IMG/VR virus record: IMGVR_UViG_3300006145_000002
Reading direction: 5' to 3' (one strand)
DNA: 64,000 bases
From: an uncultured virus (IMG/VR IMGVR_UViG_3300006145_000002)
Lineage: Duplodnaviria > Heunggongvirae > Uroviricota > Caudoviricetes
The notes under the pieces are model-generated. The model was not told the DNA's origin and searched no databases. It saw nothing but the letters and a program-made list of their open reading frames with translations. The position numbers and the translations under genes were made by a program. Position 1 is the stretch's first letter. Every line of letters begins with the position of its first letter. Below are positions 22,412-54,076 of the stretch, in pieces.

Positions 22412-22905
22412 GTGTTGTTAAGTACAGGAAATAATAATTGGTCTACTCCCCAATGGTTCTTTAATCGTCTGAATTCAATCTTTGGTTTTACCCTTGATCC
22501 ATGTGCAGATGATACTAACCACAAATGCGAACAGTATTACACTGTAGAAGATAATGGCCTTACGAAAAATTGGGGGGGCAAACAGTTTTTTGTAATCCTC
22601 CGTATGGTCGTAGAACAAAGGATAATCCGGGTCAAGAAGATTGGATTGAAAAATGCTGGAAGGAATGTAAAGAGCATCATATTACAAGTGTGATGCTCAT
22701 TCCTGCCAGAACAGATACAAAGTCTCAGCATACGTATATTTTCCCAAATGCTAAGTATGTTTGCTTTGTAAAAGGACGATTGAAGTTTGGGGACAAGGAT
22801 GCAGCACCATTTCCAAGTGAAGTTGTTGTTTTTACAGAGCAAGATTATGATGATGAGATCAAAACTTTATCAGACTTAGGATTTTGGATTAAATTGAAAG
22901 AGTAG
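22412..22905 (+). pseudogene. phage Dam-like N6-adenine methyltransferase, frameshifted at G7
   Basis: WSTPQ..FTLDPCA in one frame, FCNPPY..LIPARTDT in another. G8 at 22572 would fuse them. Confidence 0.85.
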
Positions 22906-23676
22906 GTGATAAGTATAAAATATGTTGGCAGCAAATCACGAATTGCCAAGCATATTGTTCCAATTATTCAATCATATATAGATCAAACAAATGCCAGTTT
23001 CTATTTAGAACCTTTTGTTGGGGGGGCAAACGTAATTGATAAAATCTCTTGTGACAAAAAGATTGGATATGACATAAATCATTATTTAATTGAACTGTTT
23101 AAACATAGAGATTTGATTTGTAAATTGCCCGATGAAATTACAAAAGAGGAATATGATGCAGTACGAAAATCTTTTCAAACTGGAGATGGTAAATATCCAG
23201 ATTGGTATATTGGTGCAGTAGGATTTCTTGCATCTTATAACGGAAAGTTCTTTGGCGGTAGGGCTGGCATTGTTAAAACAAAAATTGGGACAATACGTAA
23301 TTATTATGATGAAGCAAAGCGTAACCTTTTATCGCAACTTCCGCAGTTGAATGATGTGATATTTGGTGAGTCCGATTATAGGCAGCTTGATATGTCACAG
23401 TTTAAACATGGTGTTATTTATTGTGATATTCCTTACAAAAATACGACAGGGTATCAAGATAGCTTTAATCACGTTGAGTTTTGGCAATGGGCTGAAGAAT
23501 GTTCCAAAGAAAACATAGTTTTGGTATCAGAACAAGTTGCTCCTGATGAGTGGAGGTCTGTATGGGCAAAACCAGTAAAAAGAACGCTGGACAATGCTTC
23601 ACGGATCGACATTACAGAACAACTATACATATTTTCAAATAACGGTATAATCAACACAGAAAGGACGATGTTATGA
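22906..23676 (+). CDS. D12-class DNA adenine methyltransferase
   Basis: KYVGSK, EPFVGGANV, IYCDIPY. In-frame G7 at 23020-23026. Confidence 0.88.
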   Translation: MISIKYVGSKSRIAKHIVPIIQSYIDQTNASFYLEPFVGGANVIDKISCDKKIGYDINHYLIELFKHRDLICKLPDEITKEEYDAVRKSFQTGDGKYPDWYIGAVGFLASYNGKFFGGRAGIVKTKIGTIRNYYDEAKRNLLSQLPQLNDVIFGESDYRQLDMSQFKHGVIYCDIPYKNTTGYQDSFNHVEFWQWAEECSKENIVLVSEQVAPDEWRSVWAKPVKRTLDNASRIDITEQLYIFSNNGIINTERTML

Positions 23677-23786
23677 CTTCTACACTTCGCATTAAGAATT
23701 TGGCAATTCTTGTTATTTGTGCTGCTATTGTAGCCTGTGTGCTGGCCTGTTGCTCACCTCATCCTGAACTTGTTCCAGTATTTTAG
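23673..23786 (+). CDS. 37-aa signal-peptide/lipoprotein-like small ORF
   Basis: MTSTLRIKNLAILVICAAIVACVLACCSPHPELVPVF with AAAGGA RBS. Too short for the ORF track. Confidence 0.5.
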   Translation: MTSTLRIKNLAILVICAAIVACVLACCSPHPELVPVF

Positions 23787-23799
23787 TATGGAGGCTGGC

Positions 23800-24532
23800 A
23801 TGAACAAAATTTCCCAAACTTGGGGGGCAAGCAGAACCATTTGAAAACGGTAAGCTGAGAGACAATGTTATTTTCAATGCTGATTGTATTGATGGTATGT
23901 CGCATATGCCAGCTAAATCAGTAGATTTGATTGTAACTGATCCTCCGTACCTCATTAACTATAAAAGTAATCGGCGTGTAGTCAAAGAAAAATTTGATAG
24001 AATTCAGAATGATAAAAATGCAGAGCGGATCATTCAGGATGCGTTAAGTGAATATTATCGTATTCTCAAAGATGATTCTGCGATCTATATGTTTTGTAGT
24101 TGGCATCATATTGAATTCTTTAAGACGGAATTTGAGAAGTATTTCAATCTAAAAAATATTTTGATATGGAACAAAAACAATCATGGTAGCGGCGATTTGC
24201 GTGGATCGTATGCGCCAAAGTATGAAATGGTTTTATTCGGTCATAAGGGCAGAGCATTGTTCCAAGAGAAGCGAGTAGCCGATGTTATTGATTGTGCAAA
24301 GGTTTCTTCCTCAAAGCTGGTGCATCCAACTGAAAAGCCAACAGATTTGTTGGAGTTGTTTATCAAAAACAATAGTAAACCGAATGATATTGTTTTTGAT
24401 GGATTCATTGGCGGCGGTTCAACTGCATTAGCAGCATTACATACAGGGCGAAAATTTATCGGCTATGAATTGGATGAGAAATATTATCAGATTGCTTGTC
24501 AGCGAGTAGATCAAGAAATGAAAGGGTGTTGA
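23800..24532 (+). pseudogene. beta-class N4/N6 DNA methyltransferase with N-terminus out of frame at G6
   Basis: VTDPPY, HPTEKP, DGFIGGGST motifs. GGAGG and ATG 23800 join NVIFNADCIDGM only if the G6 at 23822 is G5 or G8. Confidence 0.75.
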
Positions 24533-24533
24533 A

Positions 24534-25827
24534 ATGCAACCTGTTTATCCTGAGTTTATTAAGTTCTTAGATAGTCATGGTTGCGATACAAGTTGGTATC
24601 AGGAAGGTATATTCTGGTTAGACAACAATATTATCAAAGCCTTTATAGTGGGGGGGGGGGCAAATCGTTTGTCTATTTAGAATTACTGTTGATGATAATT
24701 TGAATTTATCCTTGAAGAAACATAGAACAAATAAAGGATATGCAGAGTTTGAGTCGTGGAATGAAACCATTTGTCGCAATCAAGAGCATTTGAAAGAAAT
24801 CGAGCATGAGAGTCTTTCATTATTACAAGAGCATTGTATAAGTGCAGATAGAAAGATTGTCAATACAAATTCCACTGGCAAGGACAGTATGGTAGTACAC
24901 CATTTGGTAAAGAAGGCTGGTGTAAGTTGCGAGACTTATTTCAATGTTACAACACTTGATGTAGCAGAAAGCAATCAAATGGCAAAAAGAAATGGTTTCA
25001 AGCATATTTATCCTGATCCGCAGCATGGAGGTTTTTACAAGTATGTTCATGATAGTGGGATTATTCCAACAAGATTTGCACGATTTTGTTGTACATACTT
25101 TAAAGAAAAACCAACCGTAGATTATTTCCCCGCAGATGATAAATTGTTATTCCTATTCGGTATCCGTAATGAGGAAAGCAGCCAGCGGTCAAATTATGAT
25201 GACGTTACTAAAAATCCTATGTGGGGTGATCGAGATTGGATTGGTGTTCTTCCTATTCGTAAGTGGACTGAGTTAGACATTTGGCTTTATATACTTTCCG
25301 AAGGCATTGAGGTCAATCCAAAATATAAATATGGCTACACAAGAGTTGGTTGCGGTATTGCCTGTCCTTACTACACGAAATACACTTGGGTTCTTGATAA
25401 GTTTTGGTATCCATATCTTTATAATCGCTGGAGAGATATTCTAAAGCAAGACTTTATAGAGAAAAACAAGTGGCTCATTATGAACTGCACTATTGATGAG
25501 TATATCATTAAAGCATGGACTGGTGGAGTATATCGTAAAGAGCCAACAGATGAAGTTGTTCAAGAATACGCAAAGTATACTGGGTTAGATGAAGATGTGG
25601 CAAAGAAGTATTTTAACAGATATTGTGAAAATGGATGTTTGAATACCAGAGGCCAACCGCTCAAACTTAAAGATAAGAATACTCTTGCAATGAATATGAA
25701 AATATTTGGTAGAGATATTCAGAAGTTCAAATGCAAAAAATGCTTAATAAAAGAATTTGGTTGGAGCAAAGAACAATGGGATCAGCAAGTACAAAGTTTT
25801 AAAGAACAAGGTTGTAAATTATTTTGA
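24534..25827 (+). pseudogene. PAPS reductase-family protein frameshifted at G11
   Basis: NSTGKDS, RFCCTYFKEKP, GIRNEESSQR, RVGCGIACP. ATG 24534 is in frame only with G10 at 24650. Confidence 0.85.
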
Positions 25828-26055
25828 CGGAGGTTGTATGTTCGGCAAGAAACAGCGGCAGATTTTTGAATTACAAAATCGTGTTAGAGAGTTAGAAAAT
25901 ATTCTTTGTCCGTTTAATCAGCATGATTTTGTTGAAATAAATAGAGTATATGATGGCGGTGATCCGATTTATTCAGGAGAAGAATGGATTGTATCATGTG
26001 AATGCAAAAGGTGTCATAAAAAGATTGTTAAAACAGAAATTTAAGGAGTGATGTA

Positions 26056-26457
26056 ATGAAAATTTATTATGCTCATCACGTTTGGAAGTATGGTACGCCG
26101 ATTGAGGATTATGAACTTGAATGTATCGAAAAGAAATTCGATTCTGCCGAGATTATCAATCCTCGTACATCATTGCCACAAGATAGGCCGGAGTCGGTAA
26201 TTTTGCAATCAGCATACGATACAATTAAGGGCTGTGATGCGCTGGTATTTTCAACGGTGTCTGGCATGATTGGGCATGGAGTTTTTAATGAGATTACTGT
26301 AGCTGTTAATCATGGTATTCCGATTTATCAGCTTGAAGGTAATGATTGCTATAAAATTGCTAATGCAGATTTAAAGGATATTATCTTTCGTGGTGATAAT
26401 CGAGTTTACGCACTTGTTCATACCCCGCACGAATATCAGGAGAATACGGATTGGTGA
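26056..26457 (+). CDS. nucleoside 2-deoxyribosyltransferase-like protein
   Basis: KIYYAH, IINP, CDALVF, GHGVFNEI pattern. Confidence 0.5.
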   Translation: MKIYYAHHVWKYGTPIEDYELECIEKKFDSAEIINPRTSLPQDRPESVILQSAYDTIKGCDALVFSTVSGMIGHGVFNEITVAVNHGIPIYQLEGNDCYKIANADLKDIIFRGDNRVYALVHTPHEYQENTDW

Positions 26458-26460
26458 ACA

Positions 26461-27333
26461 ATGGGACTAAAAGTATTATCAATCTGTGGCGGGTTAGAAA
26501 CTGGTTTACTCGCTTTAAAGGAGTTAGGGATACCAGTTGATGAATACCATACATATGAAATTTATGCTCCAGCAATCGAGTTAAGCAAGCGGCATTTCCC
26601 GGAAGTACAGCATCATGGAGATGTAATAGGTGCAGACTTCTCGCAGTTCAAAGGTTTTGATCTGGTAATTGCGGGAACGTGTTGCCAGAGCCTATCAAAA
26701 CTTCGGCAAGAGAATAAAGATGTTTGTTCTGGCCTTAAAGGTAAGTCTGGTATCTTCTTTGAGTATGCCAGAGCAGTTCAGGAAATAAAGCCCAAATGGT
26801 ATATGCTTGAAAATGTTGTGCCTAAGAACAAGGCCGATCAAGATACCATTACGGCAACCTTGGGGGGGGCAGACCCTATACTTATCGACAGTGCTTTATT
26901 TTCAGCACAAGAGAGAAAACGTCTGTATTGGAGCAATATTCCTATTGCTGCCTTACCTGAATCTAATTCGCTTGTTCTTCATGATATTATGATAGATGAT
27001 GCACCAGAAAAGGATTATTACAATAAACCATATATCTTTAATGGTAAAGACAAACGTGTGATTGCAACTATTCAAGATAATTGGTTAGACATAATGAAGC
27101 GTGTGTATAATCCAGATTTCAAATGTGCTACTTTAACTTGTGTTAGTGGCGGTCATCAAGAAAAGAAAGTTTGGGATCGAGGCCGTATCCGAAAACTTTC
27201 TCCTGTTGAATATGAGCGATTACAAACGCTGCCAGATGGATTTACTGAAGGATATTCTGACAATGTTCGTAGAACGCTTTGTGGTAACGGCTGGACGAAA
27301 GAGGTTATAAAGCATATTTTTAAAGGCTTATAA
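26461..27333 (+). CDS. C5 cytosine DNA methyltransferase
   Basis: VLSICGG, GTCCQ, LENV, AQERKRLYW, ERLQTLP, GNGW. In-frame G8 at 26862-26869. Confidence 0.9.
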   Translation: MGLKVLSICGGLETGLLALKELGIPVDEYHTYEIYAPAIELSKRHFPEVQHHGDVIGADFSQFKGFDLVIAGTCCQSLSKLRQENKDVCSGLKGKSGIFFEYARAVQEIKPKWYMLENVVPKNKADQDTITATLGGADPILIDSALFSAQERKRLYWSNIPIAALPESNSLVLHDIMIDDAPEKDYYNKPYIFNGKDKRVIATIQDNWLDIMKRVYNPDFKCATLTCVSGGHQEKKVWDRGRIRKLSPVEYERLQTLPDGFTEGYSDNVRRTLCGNGWTKEVIKHIFKGL

Positions 27334-27367
27334 CGATATATTCAATAACAAAGAAAGAAGGTAATGT

Positions 27368-27673
27368 ATGGCAAAGGTTTTAGAGTTAGAAAGTGGTGTC
27401 GATCCTATTCCTACCGAAGCAGAGCAAGACAAGATGACAGATACAGAAAAGGTAATCCAAAGTTTGATGCGTAAGTCCTATACGCTGGGTGTCCAGTCTG
27501 GTATTCGTACTATGTGTGTTACTGTGCTATCACAGTTGAACCAGACAAAGAAAATGAATCCTCAGAAACAGTTGAATCTTTTGAAGCAGATGTGTATGAG
27601 GAATATTGAAAACCAGAATAAGGCTGCGCAAAACACAGAGAATCCTACAACTGAAACTACTACAAATAACTAA
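27368..27673 (+). CDS. hypothetical protein
   Basis: ORF with RBS, preceded by the 18-bp motif. Confidence 0.6.
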   Translation: MAKVLELESGVDPIPTEAEQDKMTDTEKVIQSLMRKSYTLGVQSGIRTMCVTVLSQLNQTKKMNPQKQLNLLKQMCMRNIENQNKAAQNTENPTTETTTNN

Positions 27674-27681
27674 AAAGGAGA

Positions 27682-27941
27682 ATGAAAATAATGTTTAGTC
27701 GTGATATTTTGACCGTCAAAGAGGCTCAGTTGAACGCCCTTGTCGCGGAATCGGGGGGGCAGTATCTTTAATTACAAGTACGATTGATCGTTTGGAGGCT
27801 ATCAATAGCAAGATTACTGATACACGTCAGGAGATTGCTACTTATCAGTCTGAGTTGAATCGAATTGATGGTTCAATGGAGCAGCAGTTTGGTCATAACG
27901 CAAAGATCATTGGCAAATTTAAGAGTTTTCTGGAGGACTAA
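27682..27941 (+). pseudogene. small coiled-coil gene frameshifted at G7
   Basis: AAGGAG RBS. G8 at 27753 would give one ORF ending at a TAA that overlaps the next ATG. Confidence 0.65.
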
Positions 27942-28510
27942 TGAAAGAATGTTTTGAAAATGAAATTAGCTGGATTCATTCAAAAAGTATTCAGCAGTTT
28001 GCAAGGTACTGTGTAGATAATCTTCCCGATTATTTCTTTACGGTTCCTGCTTCATCCAGCGGCAAGTATCATCCGTCCTATGCTCTTGGTGATGGTGGCC
28101 TTGTACGCCATACTAAAGCAGCGGTGGCAGTTGCGCATGAATTGTTTAACCTTGAAATGTTCCAGAAGCAGTTTTCAGAGACAGAGCAGGATTTAATTCT
28201 GTTGAGTCTGATCCTGCATGATGGAAAGAAACAGGGTGGCGGCAATGACAAGCATACTGTATTTGAACATCCTTTGTATGCTGCTGACTTTGTAAAGGAA
28301 TGTAATTTTGAATGTTCTAAGCTAACTGATGAGCAAGAGCAGATTGTACGTAATGCTATTTCTTCACATATGGGTCAATGGAATACAGCACGAAATTCCA
28401 GAACTGTATTACCTAAACCCGCAGATAAGATTCAAAAGTTTGTACATATGTGTGATTATCTTGCGTCACGTAAATTCTTAGAAGTCAATTTTGATGCAAT
28501 AAGTTATTAA
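27941..28510 (+). CDS. HD-domain phosphohydrolase
   Basis: PASSSGKYH, GGLVRHT, LHDGKK, HMG, HMCD. Confidence 0.85.
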   Translation: MKECFENEISWIHSKSIQQFARYCVDNLPDYFFTVPASSSGKYHPSYALGDGGLVRHTKAAVAVAHELFNLEMFQKQFSETEQDLILLSLILHDGKKQGGGNDKHTVFEHPLYAADFVKECNFECSKLTDEQEQIVRNAISSHMGQWNTARNSRTVLPKPADKIQKFVHMCDYLASRKFLEVNFDAISY

Positions 28511-28525
28511 AAAGGAGAGATGTAG

Positions 28526-29674
28526 ATGAGTTATCAGGCAAGATTTAATTTTGTTGGCACACCTGTTATTCCCAAGCAGAAGGCAGATACTAAGCGTCCT
28601 TTCTGCAAGGAGATGACTAAGAAGGATGATAAGGGCAAGAAGCGTGAAATGCTGTCTATGACGTTCGGTGTCAAGGAAAGCGATTCTAACATGGCTTTCG
28701 TGGAGGCTTTTGACAGTAAGCAGGACGTTATTAAGACAATGAATACCGATAACGAGAAGCTGGATGTTAATTGGGATGATCGCTTTGATGAAGATATTGT
28801 TTCTCAGGTTGCCAGTTATCGAAAGTATATTGTTGATCTTGGTGAGGATCATGGTGGGCGACAGGAATTTATTACCGTCTATGACATGATTAAGCACTTG
28901 CAGGAGCATCTTCCCAATTATGAGGGGCGTGTGGTTGTTACAGGCCAGTTTACCCGTGATTGGTATGCAAAGAAGAAGATGTATTTCAGTAAGTTCCGTA
29001 TCCAGAATGTCTTTGCTGCCCCGGAAGAGCGCAAGAGTCGGTTGATGATTACTGCCGATCTGTTCTATAACAAGGATAGCTTTGACGATTCTGATTTTGA
29101 TGAGAATAAGAAGATTACGCTGGATTGTTATATTGAGCAGTATATCAACAAGGATGAGGGACGCAAGTATGTTCCCATTCAGGTTGTGTTCTCTGGTGCA
29201 AAGTATGACATGGAGAATGAGCGTCATAAGAAGCTGCTTAACTATAAGCTGAAGTATATCAAGGTTAAGGGCAAGGCTATGGTTCATATTCCGTGGGAAA
29301 TGGTTCTGCTGCGTGGTGCTGAAGAGGCAGACTTTGATGAGTCTATGTTGACCGATGCACAGAAGGAACAGATTGAACTTGGCATTAAGACACTGGATGA
29401 TTTCAAGCCCAAGGGCAATATCTATGGAGATCGTATTGACGAGTTCCGTTTGTTTGATCCGAAGCTGGAGGGTGATTTCGCTGACGGCTTGCTTGAGGCC
29501 GAGGACAAGAGCGATGAGTTTGAGGAAAGAATTTATCAGCCGCCGCAGGATGAAACACTGGACGAGGCCAAAAACAGTTCAAAGAATGGAAAGAAGTCTA
29601 ATAAGGACGATGAGCCGCCGTTCGATGAGGACGAAAAGAAGGATGACGGCGTTGATGAAGATGACTTGTTTTAA
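28526..29674 (+). CDS. probable single-stranded DNA-binding protein
   Basis: Acidic tail ending DEDDLF, first gene of the replication module. Confidence 0.55.
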   Translation: MSYQARFNFVGTPVIPKQKADTKRPFCKEMTKKDDKGKKREMLSMTFGVKESDSNMAFVEAFDSKQDVIKTMNTDNEKLDVNWDDRFDEDIVSQVASYRKYIVDLGEDHGGRQEFITVYDMIKHLQEHLPNYEGRVVVTGQFTRDWYAKKKMYFSKFRIQNVFAAPEERKSRLMITADLFYNKDSFDDSDFDENKKITLDCYIEQYINKDEGRKYVPIQVVFSGAKYDMENERHKKLLNYKLKYIKVKGKAMVHIPWEMVLLRGAEEADFDESMLTDAQKEQIELGIKTLDDFKPKGNIYGDRIDEFRLFDPKLEGDFADGLLEAEDKSDEFEERIYQPPQDETLDEAKNSSKNGKKSNKDDEPPFDEDEKKDDGVDEDDLF

Positions 29675-29693
29675 TTGAAAGGAGTGATGTGTA

Positions 29694-30833: not shown

Positions 30834-30845
30834 TAGGAGGTACTT

Positions 30846-31352: not shown

Positions 31353-31357
31353 GGAGG

Positions 31358-37544: not shown

Positions 37545-37545
37545 T

Positions 37546-40500
37546 TTGCAAAATTATCATAAGCACGATTCATATAGCAACATTTATGTTCCTGATTCTG
37601 CTGCTGTTCAAGAAGATTATGCGAAAAGAGCAGTAGAAGTTGGACATAAGGTTTTGTCCAGTGTACAACATGGATGGGCTGGATATTACTTTGAGACATT
37701 TGAACTGGCAAAAAAGTATGACTTGAAATTTATTTTTGGGGCCGAAGCATATTGGGTAAAGGATCGGCATGAAAAGGATAGAACTAACAGCCATGTTATT
37801 TTACTTGCTAAAAACGAAAATGGACGCAGAGCAATAAATCGAATTATGTCAGATGCAAACGAAGATGGCTACTATTTTCGTCCACGTGTTGATATGGAAC
37901 TGTTACTTAGTCTGCCAGCAGATGATGTAATGATTACAACAGCTTGCATTGCATTTTGGCATTATGAGGACATTGAAGATTTACTTGTTCAATTACATAA
38001 TCATTTTAAGAGCAATCTATTTCTTGAGATTCAGTATCACAATACAGACCCGCAGATTAATTTAAATAAGCGAATTCTGGCCTTGTCTGAAAAGTACAGC
38101 ATTGAAATGATTGTTGGAATGGATAGCCACTACATCTATCCAGAGCAATCAAAAGAACGTGACTATATTCTTGCCGCCAAGAATGTTCATTATGATGATG
38201 AGCAAGGGTGGTATATGGATTATCCTGATGATGATACTACCATGCAGAGGTTCTTAACGCAGGGTGTATTTACCAAAGAGCAGATTCAAAAGGCAATGGA
38301 CAATACTGATCTGTTGCTGGAGTTTGATGATTACTCTGTTTTGTCAAATGGTGAGCCTAATCCGATTTTTTCAAAGGATATTAAGTTACCTACCTTATAT
38401 GATGGCAAACACGAGATTGATGGTAAGTTGTTACCCAAGTTGTCACAGGAGGAACGCAATAAAGAATATAGCAAGCTGATCACAAGGCTTTTCAAAGAAT
38501 ATATGGAAGGTGTACCGCCAGAACAATATGACGAATACTTTGAAGGTATTAAGACAGAGGTTCAGGTTATTAAGGACACCAATATGTCAGATTACTTCCT
38601 GATTGACTATTATATGGTGAAACGAGCAATCAAAATGGGGGGAGTTCTGACAAATTCCGGGCGTGGCAGTTCAGTTGGCTACTTTACAAATACCCTCCTT
38701 GGATTTTCCAAAGTGGATCGCTTTCAAAGTCCCATTAAGCTGTATCCAGAGCGTTTTATCAGTAAGAGTCGTATTCTTGAAACCAAGAGCCTTCCCGATA
38801 TTGACTTAAATTGGGGAACACCAGATATTGCAGCCGAAGCGCAGGAACAGATTCTTGGTAAAGATCATGCTTATCCCATGATTGCTTTCGGTACGTGTAA
38901 GAAAAAGAGTGCATTCAAACTCTATGCACGTGCGCAGAACATGGACTTCGATCTTGCCAATACTATTTCGGCACAGATTGAAAAGTATGATGAAGCCTTG
39001 AAATATGCGGATGATGATGAAAAGGATGACATTAACATCTACGATTATGTTGATGAGCAGTATCATTCCTACATTGATGCCAGTAAAAAGTATCAGGGCA
39101 TTATCATGGATAAGAAGAAAGCACCTTGCGCCTATCTGTTATATAGTGGCAGTATTCGTGAAGAGATTGGCCTAATCAAATGTAAGAGTGAAACAACCAA
39201 GAAAGAATATATGACCGCCGTTATTGACGGTGCTATCGCAGAGAATTATAAGTTCTTGAAAAATGATATTCTGAAAGTAGATGTTGTTTTGCTTGTCGAT
39301 ATGATTTACAAGCGAATTGGCATTAAGCCGCATACTGTAAATGAACTGATGGAACTGGTTAAAAATGATCCGCTTGTATGGGGTATCTATGCTAATGGTT
39401 ATACGATGGGTGTAAATCAGGTCGAGAAAGCATCCACTACCAGAAAGTCGATGAAATATCAGCCTAAAAACGTATCCGAGTTGTCTGCGTTTATTGCAGC
39501 TATTCGCCCAGCGTTTAAATCAATGTATTCCAAACTTGAAAATCGTGAAGATTTCTCTTATGACATTCCTGCCTTTGATAAGATTCTTCAAACAGAGGAA
39601 CTTCCCCAAAGTTTCATTCTGTATCAAGAGCAGACAATGAATACTTTGAACTATGCGGGATTCCCGATTGATGAATGTTATGGAATTATCAAGGCCATTG
39701 CCAAAAAGCATCCTGAAAAGGTACGTCCGTTAAAAGAACGCTTTATTAATGGTTTCCGTGACAGGATCATGGAGGAAGGTACGCCAAAAGAAAAGGCAGA
39801 AGAGGATGCAGCAAGAGTTTGGCAGATCATTTCTGATTCCTGCGGATATGGTTTCAATTCAGCCCATGCTTACTGTATGGCTTTAGATAGTCTTTATAAC
39901 GCATATCTGAAAGCCCATTATCCTTATGAGTTTTATGAAGTCTTGCTTCAGACTTATTCCGACAAGGGTAAAAAAGATAAGGTTGCTGAACTTAAACAGG
40001 AAATGAGTCGTGCATTCGGTATTATGGAGGGAGAGTATAGATTTGGATTGGACAACAGAAAGTTTGTTGCTGATCCAGAGAACCATACAATCTATCCTTC
40101 GTTGCTGTCTATTAAAGGGCTTAGTCAGGGCTGTGCTAATGATTTATATTCGCTTGGTAAAAAGCAATATGATTCATTCTATGAATTATGGAAAGACCTG
40201 AAAAAGAAAAAGAATCTGAATAGCGGCAAGATCAATACTCTGATTGAGATTGGTTACTTTGATGACTTTGGTTCTATCGGCAAGATTAAGCGTTTTGTTG
40301 AAATTCTTGATAGGCTTTATGGTCGTTCTCAGTTTAGCAAGGCCGATCCTCCGATGGAATTTATCAAGTACATTAAAAAGCATTCAGAAGAAACAGAAAA
40401 GCAGTATCGCAAGTTTGATTACGATTCTACTCTACATGAAATCTGGTATGATTTAGATGACGTTGATATTCCGCTTGGCGAACGGTTGAAATATGAACTT

Positions 40501-40821
40501 GATAATATTGGGTATGTAAAGACTTGTATGCCTGATATGTCGCCTGATTATGCGTTTGTGCAGGAATATGAGTGCAAGTATAAGAATCCAAAGTTGACAC
40601 TTTATCGTCTGTGTGATGGTACTACAGAAATTGTTAAGGTACGGCGTAAGAAATATGATGAAGCACCGATCTATGTAGGCGATATTATTAAGACTATGGA
40701 ATGCTCCGAGGAAGGTCGCTGGTCAAAGGATTCAAATGGTGATTGGCAGCAGAGTCAGCACGATAAAGAAAGTATTCTGAAGAAGTGGTCGTTTGTTCGT
40801 GAATCGCCAAAGGAGGATTGA
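37546..40821 (+). CDS. dnaE: DNA polymerase III alpha subunit
   Basis: PHP domain NYHKHD, GRGS, PDIDL, LYQEQ, GYGFNSAHA. Confidence 0.95.
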   Translation: MQNYHKHDSYSNIYVPDSAAVQEDYAKRAVEVGHKVLSSVQHGWAGYYFETFELAKKYDLKFIFGAEAYWVKDRHEKDRTNSHVILLAKNENGRRAINRIMSDANEDGYYFRPRVDMELLLSLPADDVMITTACIAFWHYEDIEDLLVQLHNHFKSNLFLEIQYHNTDPQINLNKRILALSEKYSIEMIVGMDSHYIYPEQSKERDYILAAKNVHYDDEQGWYMDYPDDDTTMQRFLTQGVFTKEQIQKAMDNTDLLLEFDDYSVLSNGEPNPIFSKDIKLPTLYDGKHEIDGKLLPKLSQEERNKEYSKLITRLFKEYMEGVPPEQYDEYFEGIKTEVQVIKDTNMSDYFLIDYYMVKRAIKMGGVLTNSGRGSSVGYFTNTLLGFSKVDRFQSPIKLYPERFISKSRILETKSLPDIDLNWGTPDIAAEAQEQILGKDHAYPMIAFGTCKKKSAFKLYARAQNMDFDLANTISAQIEKYDEALKYADDDEKDDINIYDYVDEQYHSYIDASKKYQGIIMDKKKAPCAYLLYSGSIREEIGLIKCKSETTKKEYMTAVIDGAIAENYKFLKNDILKVDVVLLVDMIYKRIGIKPHTVNELMELVKNDPLVWGIYANGYTMGVNQVEKASTTRKSMKYQPKNVSELSAFIAAIRPAFKSMYSKLENREDFSYDIPAFDKILQTEELPQSFILYQEQTMNTLNYAGFPIDECYGIIKAIAKKHPEKVRPLKERFINGFRDRIMEEGTPKEKAEEDAARVWQIISDSCGYGFNSAHAYCMALDSLYNAYLKAHYPYEFYEVLLQTYSDKGKKDKVAELKQEMSRAFGIMEGEYRFGLDNRKFVADPENHTIYPSLLSIKGLSQGCANDLYSLGKKQYDSFYELWKDLKKKKNLNSGKINTLIEIGYFDDFGSIGKIKRFVEILDRLYGRSQFSKADPPMEFIKYIKKHSEETEKQYRKFDYDSTLHEIWYDLDDVDIPLGERLKYELDNIGYVKTCMPDMSPDYAFVQEYECKYKNPKLTLYRLCDGTTEIVKVRRKKYDEAPIYVGDIIKTMECSEEGRWSKDSNGDWQQSQHDKESILKKWSFVRESPKED

Positions 40822-43887: not shown

Positions 43888-43890
43888 GTC

Positions 43891-43980: not shown

Positions 43981-45963
<1,983 letters not shown>

Positions 45964-45972
45964 AATTGAAAC

Positions 45973-45994
45973 GGGACGTGCATCAACACGTCCC
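45973..45994. terminator. hairpin between convergent genes
   Basis: GGGACGTG-catcaa-CACGTCCC. Confidence 0.6.
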
Positions 45995-46002
45995 ATCCCA
46001 AA

Positions 46003-46275: not shown

Positions 46276-46357
46276 AGATATTCAACTCCTTTGCTTAATT
46301 TGGCAAAGTTATTATAACACATAGAATTCTCATTGTAAACATGAAAGGTGAAATTAA

Positions 46358-47473
46358 ATGGGAGATTATATTTATATGAACAAGGACTTGATTAAAATGC
46401 AGTCTCGTCCGTTCAATACAAAACTCCAAGTGACAACTGCAAAGTTCCTTGAGTTTTGCCAAAAGACTGAATATAATGTTTCCCTCTCATTTTCGGGGGG
46501 GGCAGATAGTTCAGTTTTGTTAGATATGTTTGCAAAGTTTTGGTCATTACATCGTGATCAGCATGATAATAAACCATTGACTGTTATTTATGCTAATACC
46601 AGTAATGAGTTTGCATCTATGCCAAAACACGTTAAATTCTTTTGTGAATATATTGAACAGAAATATAATATAACGATTGATTTACATATTGTACGAAGCA
46701 AAACTACTTTCTTTGATGTGGTTAAAACAGAGGGGTATCCTGTAGCCAGTAAAAAAATTGCTCGTATGATCCGTGATGTTAGGGACTATTTTGCAGAACA
46801 CGATATTAAATATTCTGATATTGAACCTCATTTAGATCAGGGCGTATCAACTGCCAACTATTTAAGAGAATTACAATTCCCTGCAACTATCATTTTGCGA
46901 TTGTCTGGATATACAAGAGAAAATCGCATATGTAAAACATGGTCTATTCCTAAAAAATGGAGATTTTTAATTGAGGCTCCATTTCCGATAAGCGAACATT
47001 GTTGTGATATTTTGAAAAAGCAGCCTATTAAGTTAGTGCAGAAAGAAGTTCAGGCCAATCCAATCTACGGTACTTTAGCAGAGGATAGTCAAATGCGTAA
47101 AGATGCTTATTTGAAAACTGGATGCAATGCCTTTAAGGATGGACATGGTAAATCAACACCTATGGGATTTTGGACACGGCAGGATGTTCTTCGATACCTC
47201 TATGATTTTAATATTCCTATCGCCTCGCCCTATGGAAGTATTGCGAAACTGGATAATGGGCAGTTTGAATTTACAGGCGAACATAACACGGGTTGCAAAT
47301 TATGTTTGTTTGGTTGTCATCTGGAACATGAGCCAAATAGGATTCAGCGATTGGCAACGATTGAACCAAACACATATAAGTTTGTAATGAAAAGTAGAGA
47401 AGAAGGAGGACTTGGTTATCGTGAAGTAATGGATTATTTAGGTATACCGTATGAAACGACAGACAACAAATAA
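46358..47473 (+). CDS. PAPS reductase-family protein
   Basis: SFSGGADS, EHCCDILKKQP, TGCKLCLFG. In-frame G8 at 46495-46502. Confidence 0.88.
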   Translation: MGDYIYMNKDLIKMQSRPFNTKLQVTTAKFLEFCQKTEYNVSLSFSGGADSSVLLDMFAKFWSLHRDQHDNKPLTVIYANTSNEFASMPKHVKFFCEYIEQKYNITIDLHIVRSKTTFFDVVKTEGYPVASKKIARMIRDVRDYFAEHDIKYSDIEPHLDQGVSTANYLRELQFPATIILRLSGYTRENRICKTWSIPKKWRFLIEAPFPISEHCCDILKKQPIKLVQKEVQANPIYGTLAEDSQMRKDAYLKTGCNAFKDGHGKSTPMGFWTRQDVLRYLYDFNIPIASPYGSIAKLDNGQFEFTGEHNTGCKLCLFGCHLEHEPNRIQRLATIEPNTYKFVMKSREEGGLGYREVMDYLGIPYETTDNK

Positions 47474-47705
47474 TAAGAAAGGAAATTAGAAATGAATCGT
47501 AAGCAAAAGCAAAATGAGCAGAAGCCAAAAGGAGAAAACAAAAAGTGCTGCATGGAATGCGGATCGTCCAGTGGTACACTACACAAGATTAAGAAACCTA
47601 ATGGTAAGAAGGGTTATCTTTGCGGATTCTGCTTCGATGCTTACAGAGAACATGGCAATTAACTTTGGCAAAATAACGATATAATCAATAACAAGGAGGA
47701 ATTAC

Positions 47706-48392
47706 ATGAAGATTATTTCACCCAGCTTTGAAATTATTACCCTCATTGATAGTACAGAAATTCTAAAGACGATTGAGAAAGTCGGACGCACTTGTTATAA
47801 GAGCGAAGATAAGATTACAGAAGATTCATGTCGTGGTTTTGTACAGCGAATTATCAAGAGCGGTCATGAGGCTGTAATTGAACATTACAATGTGACAGTT
47901 CGGCTTACCAATGATCGTGGTGTATCTCATGAAGAAGTTCGTCATCGTATTGCCAGCTTTGCACAGGAGTCTACCCGTTACTGCAACTATAGCAAGGATA
48001 AGTTCGGTAACGAGATTACATATATCGACATTAAGGGCGGTATGGAACTCGATCCCAAGGTTAGCCAGCTTGACGCAAAAACATTTACCGCAATTTATGA
48101 CGAGTGGATTCAGGCTTGTATTGATGCAGAAAAGCATTATAACCGAATGATTGAACTTGGTGCTACGCCGCAGATCGCACGTTCTGTCCTTAACAATTCT
48201 ACCAAGACTGAAATCTGTATCACAATGAATCTTCGTGAGTGGCGACATTTCTTCCGTCTGCGCACTTCTCCCGCAGCACATCCGCAAATGAGAGAAATTG
48301 CAATTCAGCTTTTGAAGGCATTTAAGATGATGATTCCTGTTGTTTTCGATGACATTTATCAGGAGTATTTGGAGAGTGCCAAGAAGGACTAA
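47706..48392 (+). CDS. thyX: FAD-dependent thymidylate synthase
   Basis: GHEAVIEH, RHRIASFAQESTRY, NLREWRHF. Confidence 0.95.
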   Translation: MKIISPSFEIITLIDSTEILKTIEKVGRTCYKSEDKITEDSCRGFVQRIIKSGHEAVIEHYNVTVRLTNDRGVSHEEVRHRIASFAQESTRYCNYSKDKFGNEITYIDIKGGMELDPKVSQLDAKTFTAIYDEWIQACIDAEKHYNRMIELGATPQIARSVLNNSTKTEICITMNLREWRHFFRLRTSPAAHPQMREIAIQLLKAFKMMIPVVFDDIYQEYLESAKKD

Positions 48393-48897
48393 TAGAATTA
48401 TTGATTGTGGTGATTACTGTAAAGTTGAACTGTATTATCCACATTCAAGTTCTGTTTGTGACTATGCACTAATTTCAAAATCTGATTTAACTCTTGTAAG
48501 ACAAATCTATTGGCGTAAGACGGAGTATGGATATGCCAGAGGCAAAAATCCATTGACACGAAAAGATATATTACTTCACAAGTACATAACACAAACATCA
48601 AAAGAAACAGTAATTGACCATATTAATCGAAACAAATTGGATTGCAGACGTGAAAATATGCGCATTGCTGATAGCCAGATCAATTCTTTAAATCGCAATG
48701 CGCCATGCAATTCCACCACTGGATATAAAGGTGTTTCGTTTGATTATAGAACAGGAAAGTTTAAAGCCTATGTAAAAGTCGATAGAAAACAGATTAATCT
48801 TGGCCTCTTTGATACTGCTGAATTAGCATATCAAGAAAGAACTATTTATGAACAACTTCTCATGAGTATCATGACAAGAAAATGTAAGGGGGTTTGA
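48376..48897 (+). mobile_element. free-standing HNH-AP2 homing endonuclease
   Basis: LHKYI, IDHINRNKLDCRRENMR, GYKGVS..KFKAYV. Overlaps the end of thyX. Confidence 0.8.
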
Positions 48898-48898
48898 T

Positions 48899-49429
48899 AT
48901 GAAAGTAATTTGTATTTCCGGGAAAGCACGTCATGGCAAAGATACTTTGGCTGGCGTTTTGAAAAAGCATCTGGAGGATCATGGGAACCGTGTATTAGTC
49001 ACTCACTTTGGCGATCTGGTTAAATATATCTGCGAAAAATTTTTTGATTGGGATGGACAGAAAGATGAAAAGGGCAGAACACTTCTTCAGTATGTTGGTA
49101 CAGATGTTGTACGAACACAGGAGCCTAACTTCTGGACAGATTTCATCAAGAAGGTTTTGACACTGTTTCCTGATGAATGGGATTATGTTCTGATTCCCGA
49201 TTGCCGTTTTCCCAATGAAATTGAATGTTTTAAGGATGGTAATTTTGATGCACACCTTGTAAGAATTACCCGCCCGAATTGTGATTCTGGTCTTACAGAG
49301 CAGCAGTTAAATCATCCTTCTGAAACAGCAATGGATAATTACCATGCAGATTACTATATCATTAATGATTCTACATTGGACAATCTTGAAGCACAGATTC
49401 CAGAGATTCTAAAAGCTATCGGAGGTTAA
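48899..49429 (+). CDS. deoxynucleoside monophosphate kinase-like protein
   Basis: SGKARHGKDT, RTLLQYVGT, DCRFPNE, HPSE. Confidence 0.8.
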   Translation: MKVICISGKARHGKDTLAGVLKKHLEDHGNRVLVTHFGDLVKYICEKFFDWDGQKDEKGRTLLQYVGTDVVRTQEPNFWTDFIKKVLTLFPDEWDYVLIPDCRFPNEIECFKDGNFDAHLVRITRPNCDSGLTEQQLNHPSETAMDNYHADYYIINDSTLDNLEAQIPEILKAIGG

Positions 49430-49430
49430 A

Positions 49431-49973
49431 ATGTCAGATAAAAAGATTGTTCTGTGTGATGCAGATGATACCATTGAAAATCTGTGTGAAACATGGGTGA
49501 ATTATCTGAATTGCCGATATGGAACAAAAGTAGCTGCTGATGATGTTGTCGATTGGGATGTAAGTAAATTTTTCCCTGAATTGACTAAGGATCAAGTCTA
49601 TGCTCCTATATATGATAAGGAATTTTGGAAACTCATTCTTCCAATCAAGGGATGTTATAAAGTCCTTAGTGAAATCAATAAAAAGCATGATTTGTATATT
49701 GTAACAGCTACGAATTATCAAACTTGCGATACAAAAGTTGAACGTATTATTGTCGATCTGTTTCCGTTTCTTCAGTGGTCACAATTCATTATTGCTTCTA
49801 AAAAGCAACTTGTGTACGGTGACTATTTGATTGACGATGGAGTACATAATTTTGATGGCGGTCACTATAAGGGAATTCTATTTGATCGCCCACATAATCG
49901 CTTATTTGATGCAAAAGCTGCTGGCCTAACCCGTGTTCATACATGGGATGAAATTGGCAATATCTTATTGTAA
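49431..49973 (+). CDS. 5'(3')-deoxyribonucleotidase (HAD family)
   Basis: CDADDT, IVTA, LIDD, RPHN. Confidence 0.85.
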   Translation: MSDKKIVLCDADDTIENLCETWVNYLNCRYGTKVAADDVVDWDVSKFFPELTKDQVYAPIYDKEFWKLILPIKGCYKVLSEINKKHDLYIVTATNYQTCDTKVERIIVDLFPFLQWSQFIIASKKQLVYGDYLIDDGVHNFDGGHYKGILFDRPHNRLFDAKAAGLTRVHTWDEIGNILL

Positions 49974-49988
49974 TAAAGGAGTAATTCA

Positions 49989-52298
49989 ATGGTTGTAATT
50001 AAACGTGATGGCAGAGAAGTTGAGTTTGATAAAAGAAAAATCAGCAATGCAGTTTTGAAAGCAATTATTGAGGTAGATGGTGAAAGCACACTTGATACAG
50101 AAAGAATTGCTTACGATATTGCAGATCGTATTGAAGAAAAGAGTAAAGATGCTGCTTTGACTGTTGAGCAAATTCAGGATATGGTCGAGGTTCAGCTTAT
50201 GCTTAGTTATCGTAAAGATATTGCAAAAGCATATATCTTGTATCGTAATGAAAGAACCAAAATCCGTGATAGAAATAGTAATCTTGTTAAGAATATTATG
50301 GTAAGGGCTGATTCAAAAGTCAATTATCGGTCTAATGCAAATGTTGATGAATCGTCATTCTCTGGACGTGAAAAAGAGGCTTCTGCCGATATTGGTAAGA
50401 TGATTGCGCTGGATTTTGATGGTCTTTCTCATGATGTTGCCGAAGCACATAAGTCAATGCTGGTATATCAGCATGATCTTGAAAAGGCTATTTACGGTAT
50501 TCATAACTGTCTTAATCTCAATTTCCAAGAGATTTTTAACTATGGTTTCCGTACACGTAATGGTGATGTAAGACCGCCTTCCTCTTTTAGTACAGCTTGT
50601 CAGTTGGTTGCGGTTGCTTTTCAGTGTCAAAGTCAAGTGCAGTTTGGCGGTGTCGGTAGCATTCATCTGGACTATGATCTTGCTCCGTTTGTTACTAAGA
50701 GTTTCGTAAAGAAATATATCTTTGCACTGATTAAAGCCAGTGACGAGTTCTCTGATACAGATTTTGTAAATCTGAATGAGGAACAGTTGGATGCTTTTAT
50801 TGATGAAATGACACCTATTATGCTGGAGCGTAATAGTCTGTCCAGAGAAGATATTTTCCTTGATAATAAAGCCAATCTCGACAAGAGAATGTATAATCAA
50901 GCCTATTTTGACTTGATGTGTGAAGGTAAACAAGCGGCTCAAGGTCTGTATCATAATCTTAATACACTTGAATCTCGACAGGGTTCACAAGTTCCATTTA
51001 CAAGTATCAATCTCGGTAGAGATACCAGTACAGAAGGTAGACTTGTTACAAAGTGGATTATGGAGGCCAGCATTGACGGTATTGGGCAACATCATCTTAC
51101 AAGTATTTTCCCCATTAGCATTTTCCAGTATAAGGTAGGGGTTAATGCAAATCCGTCCGATCCCAACTATGATTTGAAGCAATATGCTCTTAGGTCGATG
51201 AGTAAGCGTATTTATCCTAATTGGTGCAATGGAAATTGGTCACAGGCACACGAAGATGAAAATAATCCAGATACGTTCTTTGCGACTATGGGATGCCGAA
51301 CCTTAATTGGATATGACCGTCATGGGCTTGGATATATTCGACAGGGACGTGGTAACAATGTTCCCAATACAATTATCCTTCCGAAGCTGGGTATCGAATT
51401 TGGTATTTGTCTTGGTAGGCGTGATAAACCTGATCTGGATGGATTCTGGAAGGCTTTTGAGGAAACTTTGCAGTTGACAGAGCGTGGGCTTCTGGAGCGA
51501 TTTGAAATCATGGTACGGCAATCTCCTAAGTCAGCACCATTCATGTATCAAAACAATACTATTCAGGATGCAAGAAACTGTGAAGAGAATGTGTTTAATG
51601 CGCTGAAACATAATACATTGGCGATTGGCTATCTTGGTATTGCCGAAATGTGTCAGGCCCTTTTTGGTAAGAATCATGTTCATGATGAAAATGTTCATGC
51701 CTTTGCTTTGTCTGTTGTCAAGCGCATTAATGAGTATGCTGCTGAAGCGTCCGAACGTAACAATTTGAATTTCTCTTGCTATGCCACTCCAGCAGAAGGA
51801 CTTTGCCGTACCGCATTGATGGGGCTTCGTGAGCAGTATGGTGTTATTGAAAACGTTACCTCCCATGAGTATTTGACAAATTCACATCATGTTCCTGTTT
51901 GGGAAAAGGTTTCTATTCAGGATAAGTTACGGTGTGAGGCTCCTTTCTGTAAATACCCTACTGGCGGTTGTATTACATACGTTGAACTTGATAGCACATT
52001 TGTAAAGAATACTAAGGCAGTAGAGGACATTATTGATTATGCCTTTAAGGATTTGGATATTCCATATCTGGCATTTAACTTCCCGATTGATAGCTGCTTA
52101 GATTGTGGGTATCAGGGTGAATTTAATGATGCCTGTCCTCAGTGTGGAAGTCAGAACATCCAGCAGCTTCGCCGTGTGACTGGCTATCTGACAACAGACT
52201 ATCGTAATTTTAACGATGGTAAGCAGCGGGAAGTGCTTGATCGTGAACAGCATAGTAAATATACTCCACAAATCAATCAAGGATCAGATGAGTCTTAA
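49989..52298 (+). CDS. nrdD: anaerobic ribonucleoside-triphosphate reductase
   Basis: ATP cone VIKRDG, MGCRT, TPAEG, TNSHH, RRVTGYL glycyl-radical motif. Confidence 0.95.
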   Translation: MVVIKRDGREVEFDKRKISNAVLKAIIEVDGESTLDTERIAYDIADRIEEKSKDAALTVEQIQDMVEVQLMLSYRKDIAKAYILYRNERTKIRDRNSNLVKNIMVRADSKVNYRSNANVDESSFSGREKEASADIGKMIALDFDGLSHDVAEAHKSMLVYQHDLEKAIYGIHNCLNLNFQEIFNYGFRTRNGDVRPPSSFSTACQLVAVAFQCQSQVQFGGVGSIHLDYDLAPFVTKSFVKKYIFALIKASDEFSDTDFVNLNEEQLDAFIDEMTPIMLERNSLSREDIFLDNKANLDKRMYNQAYFDLMCEGKQAAQGLYHNLNTLESRQGSQVPFTSINLGRDTSTEGRLVTKWIMEASIDGIGQHHLTSIFPISIFQYKVGVNANPSDPNYDLKQYALRSMSKRIYPNWCNGNWSQAHEDENNPDTFFATMGCRTLIGYDRHGLGYIRQGRGNNVPNTIILPKLGIEFGICLGRRDKPDLDGFWKAFEETLQLTERGLLERFEIMVRQSPKSAPFMYQNNTIQDARNCEENVFNALKHNTLAIGYLGIAEMCQALFGKNHVHDENVHAFALSVVKRINEYAAEASERNNLNFSCYATPAEGLCRTALMGLREQYGVIENVTSHEYLTNSHHVPVWEKVSIQDKLRCEAPFCKYPTGGCITYVELDSTFVKNTKAVEDIIDYAFKDLDIPYLAFNFPIDSCLDCGYQGEFNDACPQCGSQNIQQLRRVTGYLTTDYRNFNDGKQREVLDREQHSKYTPQINQGSDES

Positions 52299-52824
52299 TT
52301 GGCGATACGCTGGTATTGAATATGATGATATAGCAAATGGTATTGGCCTTGGGGCAGTTTTCTTCACACAGGGCTGTCCCCACCAATGCCCCGAATGCCA
52401 TAATCCTCAAACGTGGAGTAGGGATGGTGGAGAACAGTTTACGGATGCTGTATTAGATCAGCTTTTGCAATACTATTATGATATTCCATATGCCAGTAGA
52501 TTAACCCTTTCAGGCGGCGATCCTTTAGCAAGTCCTGAATTAACCTATAGTATCATTTTCAAATTTAAAACTATTTTCCCACACAAAAAGGTTTGGTTAT
52601 ATACAGGTTATCTTTTTGAGGATTTTGCCTTTAATACTTCAGCAACAGAAATAGATTCTTTAATTCAAAAGATTATTCGGTTGTGCGATGTAGTTGTTGA
52701 TGGCGAATTTGAAATTGATAAGCGTGACATAACTTTACAATTTATGGGTTCCAGTAATCAAAGGATTATTGATGTGCAGAAATCTTTAAAAGAAAAGCAA
52801 ACGGTTCTATGGAAGGAGAATTGA
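52288..52824 (+). CDS. nrdG: anaerobic RNR activating enzyme
   Basis: GCPHQCPECHN, SGGDP, YTGY, GSSNQR. Confidence 0.93.
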   Translation: MSLNWRYAGIEYDDIANGIGLGAVFFTQGCPHQCPECHNPQTWSRDGGEQFTDAVLDQLLQYYYDIPYASRLTLSGGDPLASPELTYSIIFKFKTIFPHKKVWLYTGYLFEDFAFNTSATEIDSLIQKIIRLCDVVVDGEFEIDKRDITLQFMGSSNQRIIDVQKSLKEKQTVLWKEN

Positions 52825-52989
52825 TATGATGTTGAAAGATTTGCATTCTAAACCATTGTCAGAAATTATTGAACAAATGGATATGGTTGATTTAAAAGTA
52901 CATTCCGACAACAACGGTGTAATCAATAGCATCGAAATTAAGTATGCAGCACAGCAAAAGGTAGATAAAGAAACTACTTGGAGGAAATA

Positions 52990-54076
52990 ATGAGAGTAGC
53001 TATTATTGATGCAGACTTAATAGGACGCAAAAAGCATAGATTTCCAAATCTTGCTTGTATGAAACTTTCTGCATACCATAAAATCGGGGGGGGCAGACGT
53101 TTTTCTAAAAACAGATTATGACAATCTTGAATCATTTGACAAAGTTTTCATTTCTAAAGTTTTTACTGATACACCTATTGATGATAAAATCTTACATCTT
53201 GAAAATGTTCAATATGGTGGAACAGGATTCTTTTATGACTTGGCTCCAAAACTTCTTGATGAGATTGAGCATATATTCCCTGATTATCATTTATATGATG
53301 ATTGGGTAAACAAGCAAATTGAAAACGGTATAAAGCCAATAAAGTTGAAGTATTATACAGACTATTCTATAGGTTTTATGACCAGAGGATGCTTTAGGCA
53401 ATGCCAGTTCTGTGTAAATCGAAATTATAAAAAAGTATCTGTACATAGTCCACTTATAGAATTTTATGATCCAACAAGACCAAAAATTTGTTTGCTTGAT
53501 GATAATTTCCTTGGGTTTTCATGTTGGAAAGAATTGCTTTTAGAATTACAGTCTACTAACAAACCATTTCAATTTGATCAAGGATTAGATGAAAGGCTTT
53601 TAACACAAGAGAAATGCGAAGTACTTTTCAAGAGCAAATACGATGGTGATTATAAATTTGCCTTTGATAATGTTGCAGATGCAGAAGTAATTGAAAGAAA
53701 GCTAAAATTAATTAGAGAATATACAAACAAAAGTATAAAATTCTATGTGTTTTGCGGCTTTGATCGTAATGATATTTGGGATGATTCTTTTTGGAGACAG
53801 GATATATTAGATATAATGACTCGTATTGAAATTTTGATGAAATATCATGCGTTGCCATATATCATGCGTTTTATAAAATACAAAGAAAGTCCATATGAAA
53901 AATTGTATACTGAAATCGCTCGTTGGTGCAATCAGCCAGCATTTATCAAAAAGAAAAGTTTTCATGAATTTGCTCAAATACGTGAAGGAAGTATTAATTG
54001 GCGAACAATGCTAAAAGCTGAATCTGAAATTGAAGGACTTACAAAATATTTTGAAATGAAATGGGAGGGTAACTAA
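52990..54076 (+). pseudogene. radical SAM protein frameshifted at G8
   Basis: IIDAD..FPNLACMKLSAYHK in one frame, ISKVFT..GGTG..TRGCFRQCQFC in the next. G7 at 53086 would fuse them. Confidence 0.85.

Follow-up and report, generated by a model that had tools for sequence, protein, structure and literature searches.

Length-variable poly-G tracts in DNA-modification genes of a temperate gut phage clade as candidate contingency loci

The DNA analysed here, hereafter the window, is the whole 64,000-nucleotide stretch of the uncultured caudoviricete virus IMGVR_UViG_3300006145_000002 (IMG/VR). It has a GC content of 37.5%, belongs to a temperate gut phage of ~130 kb, and carries eight poly-G tracts of the form G(n)CA, through which, as an earlier note on the same DNA had proposed, a set of DNA-modification genes may be phase-variable. 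All eight tracts were recovered at the coordinates and lengths given in that note; all lie on the plus (coding) strand and each is directly followed by CA. Frame analysis agreed with the note on the state of every tract gene: the tracts at 22572 (G7), 23822 (G6), 24650 (G11), 27753 (G7), and 53086 (G8) place their genes out of frame, and those at 23020 (G7), 26862 (G8), and 46495 (G8) keep theirs in frame. Pfam and PHROGs likewise upheld the gene labels.

Six of the tracts lie in a co-directional modification cluster, which is placed between an RNA ligase gene and the helicase and DnaE replication genes. At its start, the gene of a Dam-like adenine methyltransferase (PF05869; 22412..22905) is split at a G7-CAA tract (22572..22578) upstream of the NPPY motif, and its two halves match positions 9–60 and 61–126 of the family profile; G8 or G11 would be in frame, and G7–G11 occur in relatives. 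The adjoining gene of a D12-class adenine methyltransferase (PF02086; 22906..23676) is in frame, with a G7-CAA tract (23020..23026; G6–G9 in relatives) within motif I (EPFVGGAN). A short hydrophobic, lipoprotein-like open reading frame (ORF; 23673-23787), with similar ORFs in the sister lineage, separates it from the out-of-frame gene of an N6/N4 (beta-class) methyltransferase (PF01555; 23800..24532). The latter starts at the ATG at 23800 behind GGAGG and carries its G6-CAA tract (23822..23827; G5 or G8 in frame, G6–G10 in relatives) in a short N-terminal leader; ribosome-binding site, ATG, and leader are conserved in all eight loci viewed. Next follows the gene of a protein with a 3′-phosphoadenosine 5′-phosphosulfate (PAPS) reductase domain (PAPS-domain protein 1, by Pfam and PHROGs; 24534..25827), whose best PADLOC match is BrxP (E = 2.7e-27). 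It is out of frame at a G11-CAA tract (24650..24660; G7 or G10 in frame for the window allele), and one lineage has a second tract, G7/G8-CAA, in the same gene. The C5-cytosine methyltransferase gene (PF00145; 26461..27333) is in frame with a G8-CAG tract (26862..26869; G6–G9 in relatives). The last cluster tract, G7-CAG (27753..27759; G8 in frame), interrupts the gene of a helical phage protein of 86 aa that belongs to no known family (27682..27941), which is intact in contigs L034 and L006 and matched only unnamed viral clusters in the Atlas.

Two further tract genes lie downstream, also on the plus strand. PAPS-domain protein 2 (PF01507; 46358..47473) is encoded in frame, with its G8-CAG tract (46495..46502; G6–G9 in relatives) inside the PP-loop motif (SGGADS); in the homologs of L082 and L083 the tract sits at a different site. 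The gene of a radical SAM protein (52990..54076) is out of frame at a G8-CAG tract (53086..53093), its two pieces match phrog_9298 in order, and tract-free homologs in L016 and L017 are contiguous in the G7 register. G8 was found here in four of four contigs, all 100% identical to the window. Possibly the protein binds cobalamin, which we treat as a lead only. In PDB, neither PAPS-domain protein 2 nor the radical SAM family had a match, and PAPS-domain protein 1 matched CysD and CysH only. The earlier note had counted seven of the eight tracts in modification-type enzymes. Homology carries this statement for the four methyltransferases, whereas a role in modification is putative for the radical SAM protein and for both proteins with a PAPS-reductase domain.

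The list in the earlier note did not include the Pnkp/RNA-ligase gene upstream of the cluster (20188..22374, plus strand; Pfam and PHROGs), which has an in-frame G6-TT tract at 20983-20988 that also varies, being G7 and out of frame in L005 and L006. The G7-TG run at 16305-16311, which ends 7 nt upstream of the likely start codon (ATG) of a MazF/PemK-like gene, resembles a ribosome-binding site more than a frameshift tract. It is one base shorter in sequencing run X7 and could tune toxin translation.

Long homopolymers are otherwise scarce. The window contains 12 G runs of six or more, all on the plus strand, and eight of these are the G(n)CA tracts; C runs reach five at most and A/T runs seven. 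Eight G/C runs of seven or more compare with 0.3–1.2 expected under Markov models of orders 1–3 (100 simulations per model; simulation maximum 3–5). Conversely, no A/T run of eight or more was observed (8–14 expected), and only four of seven or more (25–38 expected). The genome thus avoids long runs except at the G tracts. Tracts are carried by four of the five methyltransferase genes, the two genes of PAPS-domain proteins, the 86-aa gene, and the radical SAM gene. Set against the methyltransferase and PAPS genes, the G(n)CA type is present in 1 of roughly 70–110 other genes. The fifth DNA methyltransferase gene (12946..13719, plus strand; PHROGs) has no G/C run of five or more and serves as an internal control. 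In-frame G6 runs are present in dnaE at 38637 and in an RlaP-like gene at 403.

Tract lengths were compared across assembled contigs of the clade, whose members were recovered in marker scans at ≥78% identity; in relatives below 70%, the region is mostly free of such runs, and the tracts persist at 74% DNA identity. In-frame alleles were found in 17 of 41 contigs for the Dam-like gene, 22 of 36 for D12, 1 of 17 for N6/N4, 8 of 30 for PAPS-domain gene 1 (first tract of the gene), 25 of 45 for C5, 6 of 18 for the 86-aa gene (tract-bearing contigs), and 7 of 22 for PAPS-domain gene 2, as well as in 34 of 38 for the Pnkp/ligase gene and 0 of 4 for the radical SAM gene; these counts include sibling contigs, the indel-prone contig L165, and one C5 allele (L071) of uncertain phase. 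Altogether 123 of 209 scored alleles were out of frame. From here on, L165 was excluded from the analyses of near-identical pairs, substitution rates, and ON/OFF patterns. Among eight pairs of contigs with 99% or higher identity (one per near-identical group, picked from 24 pairs), 18 of 40 tract sites differed, against a background of 87 single nucleotide polymorphisms (SNPs) in 130,999 aligned bp, a single non-tract indel (in a G4/G5 run), and no indel at 103 A/T runs of six or more. L069 and L155 differ by two SNPs and five tract indels. Likewise, contigs of runs X4 and X7 lack four bases of the tract at 24650, and in X7 the tract at 27753 has two extra bases; gaps of run X3 and two of X4, located on contigs without substitutions, were not counted as tract changes.

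The earlier note had named invariance among relatives as an outcome that would refute it. Instead, lengths range from G6 to G11, and changes are located at the tracts and not at other homopolymers. The repeats are coding and set the reading frame, and their indels exceed the background, an excess that is comparative and not a measured rate. In L076 (MT-A70) and L078 (D12, region 4176-4183), point substitutions at the tract end cut the run to six; the L078 allele is in frame and may be locked ON. A C7 run in a cell-wall hydrolase gene (L049:11313) is in frame and of the same length in seven of seven contigs.

Out-of-frame (OFF) alleles are maintained. Their downstream frames are full length in nearly all cases (one N6/N4 allele of 16 is short), and the median ratio of nonsynonymous to synonymous substitution rates (dN/dS) between out-of-frame alleles was 0.045–0.17 (1 to 22 pairs per family). 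In all seven families compared, which do not include radical SAM, identical downstream DNA was found in both the ON and the OFF state. Reversibility with retention of gene function is thus indicated comparatively, by both states on identical DNA together with the dN/dS values. Nine distinct ON/OFF patterns of four genes occurred among 17 genome states, and no pairwise association was detected, at low statistical power. Judged by sequence comparison, intact and selected OFF alleles with unlinked states are the signature of reversible, independent switches. Together with the targeted length variation, the purifying selection on full-length frames downstream of OFF tracts supports the phase-variable reading put forward in the earlier note.

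A feature that the note had missed is that the flank itself is a nucleotide-level signature of the clade, used in both orientations. We counted by hand 27 non-homologous intragenic clade sites with a run of seven or more, excluding six runs in G011, G015, and G016 and three probably intergenic or ribosome-binding-site-like G7 runs (window 16305, TG; L026:12461, TT; L031:14902, CA). The run is followed by C at 26 of the 27 sites and by CA at 22, nearly always as CAA or CAG, compared with 22–29% C and 6–11% CA after shorter G runs. Protein constraint does not explain the CA, as it occupies codon phase 0, 1, or 2 in different C5 alleles. The reversed motif, TG-C7/8 on the coding strand, was found in MT-A70, N6, and C5 methyltransferase genes, and reversed tracts vary as well (C6–C9 in the MT-A70 gene, C7 and C8 in the N6 gene). 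Other clade sites lie in further methyltransferase genes, a Mom-like gene, a second RNA-ligase family, and a second position in PAPS genes, and tracts arose at separate sites within the same gene families. In contig L246 (30% GC, 73% helicase identity), 10 of 11 long runs fall into one 6.6-kb cluster, with CA at seven of nine unselected sites. The occurrence in both orientations and all codon phases points to slippage in DNA replication and away from recoding. A strong host-wide CA bias was not found: CA follows 36 of 262 G7 runs in the genome of Flintibacter muris DSM 110149, with eight of the 36 inside the prophage, and for the second host the figure is 21 of 162. Some C5 methyltransferase genes have two or three tracts, one of them reversed (L246:1945-2893 region, L221:3116-3602, L082:3240-4250), with short downstream modules in other frames.

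The phage is considered temperate because the window encodes a tyrosine integrase (57917..59188, plus strand; Pfam) and a repressor with an ImmA-like protease (14339-15359; Pfam), and because a relative is integrated in the F. muris chromosome. Pfam also identified DnaE, a DnaB-like helicase, NAD ligase, NrdD/G, ThyX, tRNA-repair enzymes, and an endolysin. A complete relative (G005) measures 133 kb. PAPS-domain protein 1 has matches in prophages of F. muris DSM 110149 (98%) and a Clostridiaceae bacterium (85%); the F. muris prophage is collinear with the window and lacks the radical SAM gene. Sequencing runs containing the cluster are labelled mouse gut or feces, and the sister group includes human-gut records. 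Six RNA runs contain 0.37–0.43 of the words, from which no claim on expression is drawn. INPHARED yielded no close relative of the window, only 20 short methyltransferase matches. Side observations include a tRNA/RNA repair set (window 340-9714 and 20188-22374: RlaP-like nucleotidyltransferase, CCA-adding enzyme, Thg1, Pnkp/RNA ligase) of considerable size, a total of 14 tRNAs called in G005 with one duplicated across the terminal repeat, and an ARAGORN tRNA call with an unassigned anticodon that adjoins a tRNA-Ser (L025:2389-2481). Proteins with the GmrSD N-terminal domain (DUF262) are encoded at 5084-5614 of the window and twice in the complete relative (L024:5771-6847 and 14293-14856). In the latter, a reverse transcriptase beside a DUF6273 tail-region gene (L027:15020-19786, minus strand) suggests a diversity-generating retroelement; another DUF6273 gene lies at 19229-20089 of the window, and contigs are polymorphic around 18700-20150.

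We consider it likely that the tracts are evolved contingency loci, which slip reversibly and let the phage sample many combinations of modification genes. According to this explanation, long homopolymers would be purged genome-wide, and a G/C run of 7–11 kept near the start or within a core motif of most DNA-modification genes. At replication, slipped-strand mispairing would add or remove bases reversibly, so that each gene flips between a full-length and a truncated product. The flips look independent, and a lineage could thereby sample its adenine methyltransferases, cytosine methyltransferases, and PAPS-reductase-domain enzymes in many combinations. During lytic growth, the ON enzymes would mark phage DNA. 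Judging from known biology, ON would guard against host restriction-modification, and OFF could avoid methyl-directed nucleases or toxicity to the lysogen. The offspring of one phage probably carry differing combinations of DNA marks against host defences; defence hedging, the resulting methylomes, and mixing within populations are suggested by analogy. Mrr-domain proteins are encoded by both host genomes.

Several observations weigh against this explanation. Four contigs identical to the window (L001, L002, L003, L007) keep all six cluster tract lengths, including G11, the pairs L090/L144, L082/L154, and L066/L067 are unchanged at their tracts, and the probable source run shows neither break nor variant there. 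Some of these unchanged contigs may represent one strain or one sample, and the contigs are generally not independent samples; still, siblings and pairs indicate that switching is not fast in every setting. In addition, the N6/N4 gene is in frame in just one contig, no McrC match was found in the two host genomes, and the targets are wider than DNA modification, since the tract genes include one for an RNA ligase and one whose product is not an enzyme.

Errors of sequencing or assembly in G homopolymers, which the earlier note had named as a second refuting outcome, are by now largely refuted and have a minimal residual probability. The platforms of the records are unknown, L165 is visibly indel-prone, and some contigs have a depth of 5–8, but the same lengths including G11 recur in four separate assemblies, the A/T runs are free of indels, and out-of-frame lengths were found in independent assemblies and in an isolate genome (contig labelled 165-fold coverage). 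Nor can error put runs at orthologous and convergent sites. Neutral decay, in which dispensable genes are lost through chance homopolymers, would fit the differing gene content of the cluster among lineages and the absence of the radical SAM gene from the F. muris prophage, but the near-universal full-length frames downstream of OFF tracts, dN/dS values far below 1, and the persistence of the tracts at 74% identity make it similarly improbable; the dN/dS analysis largely refutes it. Programmed ribosomal frameshifting or transcriptional slippage at G(n)CA could yield some full-length protein at any genomic length, and the common 3′ flank and the frequent out-of-frame consensus do resemble a possible recoding signal. 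We regard this as very unlikely, since genomic lengths vary from G6 to G11 and demand shifts in both directions, CA occurs in all three codon phases, and the motif on the non-coding strand also breaks genes. Hence, the fixed genomic length, strand, and phase of a recoding site were not seen. The 22 tRNA calls on nine loci, one with an unassigned anticodon, did not include a frameshift-suppressor tRNA-Gly.

Two other proposals accept the switches and shift their cause or benefit. Switching might serve the lysogen, with prophage methyltransferases marking the host chromosome, as a phasevarion or superinfection defence, and not protecting virion DNA. The phage is temperate and was found integrated, and the 123 of 209 out-of-frame alleles would be expected if ON were costly to a lysogen. 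The cluster, however, is co-directional between the RNA ligase and the helicase/DnaE genes, a region that is the usual location of lytic-phase genes, and we consider this proposal rather doubtful. About equally doubtful is an induction-coupled mutator, a refinement of the contingency-locus explanation that does not exclude it, in which host Pol IV (DinB) from SOS or prophage induction reshuffles the switches at 5′-G-C(n) hotspots as particles form. Both hosts encode Y-family polymerases, and stable sibling lengths would fit tracts that are quiet in lysogens. The DinB deletion hotspot, as defined in PMC3643592, is a pyrimidine run with a 5′ G, the form that the template strand takes at 26 of the 27 clade sites, and C follows shorter runs in only 22–29% of cases. 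This accounts for the C and leaves the A behind it (22 of 26, against a background of about 0.37) unexplained. Moreover, DinB mainly causes −1 deletions, yet lengths reach G11; none of three phage records encodes a Y-family polymerase; and Dam tracts flanked by TA, AA, AG, or TG vary in other phages too. No less plausible would be slippage by the DnaE that the phage itself encodes, in dependence on sequence context. This candidate source (37546..40821, plus strand; Pfam) has His/Asp/Glu/Cys ligands of the PHP domain that appear intact on visual inspection.

Within the contingency-locus explanation, the CA flank may raise slippage for the polymerase used by the clade. More speculatively, the clade might have evolved a portable mutation-address motif, Y-G(7+)-C-A-R, which its DnaE or the DinB of the host under SOS induction would read. 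The motif would have been installed independently at least 20 times, facing either way, in genes of the methyltransferase, Mom-like, PAPS-reductase, and RNA-ligase types. Induction would then release a combinatorial epigenome library, possibly with switchable phosphorothioation of phage DNA. We put this extended scenario forward as a tentative possibility.

Poly-G tracts in Dam-like genes are not restricted to the clade. At least 117 other viral contigs carry Dam-like genes with T-G7+ and any flank, and among the matches listed 54 are in frame and 63 out of frame. The flank is CA in 40 of these listed matches, TA in 23, and others in fewer; both states occur under TA, AA, AG, CG, and TG, and CA as a general requirement for slippage was rejected. 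Three records checked from a preceding Dam scan lack the helicase of the clade. These data indicate that switchable Dam-like genes are widespread among other phages, with the CA bias being specific to this clade. In an unrelated 101-kb phage (L255:4606-8437), the Dam-like gene is surrounded by four G9 runs, two of them within one gene of 287+ aa, and the long runs number nine in total.

If the explanation holds, phage phase variation extends from single genes to a whole switchable DNA-modification set, with which a single lineage of gut phage could cover hosts that differ in their restriction systems. With more than half of the listed poly-G Dam-like genes out of frame, annotation pipelines mistake such genes for fragments or errors, and the methylation capacity of phages is undercounted. 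The CA flank is a natural setting in which to test the influence of sequence context on slippage, and the cultured lysogen F. muris DSM 110149 makes the explanation directly testable.

The PAPS-domain proteins share their domain with DndC, SspD, and BrxP, which act with a cysteine desulfurase (PMC12914056, PMC10853773), and match BrxP with E values of 2.7e-27 and 7.9e-9, but their NCBIfam scores are far below the cut-offs. Both phage lineages also encode a DndA/SspA-like cysteine desulfurase near a tRNA cluster (L023:11391-12548 and L030:18548-19690, both minus strand, L030 being a sibling contig upstream of the window), so that PAPS-type enzyme and desulfurase occur together; homologs at 34–37% identity are present in several more distant phages. 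Given its position near tRNA genes, the desulfurase may serve tRNA thiolation. Phosphorothioation by the PAPS-domain proteins and the desulfurase (PMC12914056) is a lead, one that loses weight because Pfam revealed no DndD/SspC/BrxC-type ATPase beside the PAPS genes (PADLOC covered 10 proteins).

For individual phage genes, contingency loci have been published. A clustered multi-gene poly-G switch set in phage methyltransferases with a shared flank was not found in the literature, in a search that did not extend to most subscription journals or to supplements on bioRxiv, among them the repeat tables of PMC12633550, where such genes may be listed. Like the phasevarions of Campylobacter, Helicobacter, Neisseria, and Haemophilus, the present genes are DNA methyltransferases with repeat-tract ON/OFF switching. 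Phasevarions, however, depend on chromosomal Type I, IIG, or III enzymes that regulate host genes, whereas here the phage genes match methyltransferases of Type II or of the orphan kind and not a Type III Mod and Res pair, and no cognate endonuclease was seen adjacent to these Type II-like enzymes. Poly-G tracts in Fletchervirus receptor-binding proteins and in one BPP-1 methylase are mentioned in passing in the literature. Fletchervirus shares G7–G11 tracts in phage coding sequence, but the targets here are a battery of DNA-modification genes, and no tract of seven or more was seen in the tail genes of the complete relative G005. A precedent is agt of phage T2, where a coding A-run switches a glucosyltransferase and, likewise, a coding homopolymer controls a DNA-modification gene, a proposed hedge between two kinds of restriction, with the trade-off shown for TgvAB and McrA/BC (PMC12633550). 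Contingency in T2 and T4 involves A runs at >100 weak sites spread over all gene classes, with frequencies near 1e-4 to 1e-3 (PMC12633550). In contrast, the temperate phage described here has G/C runs confined to a modification cluster and no A/T run of eight or more, and the 7–10 switches per genome are often fixed OFF in the consensus and share the CA flank.

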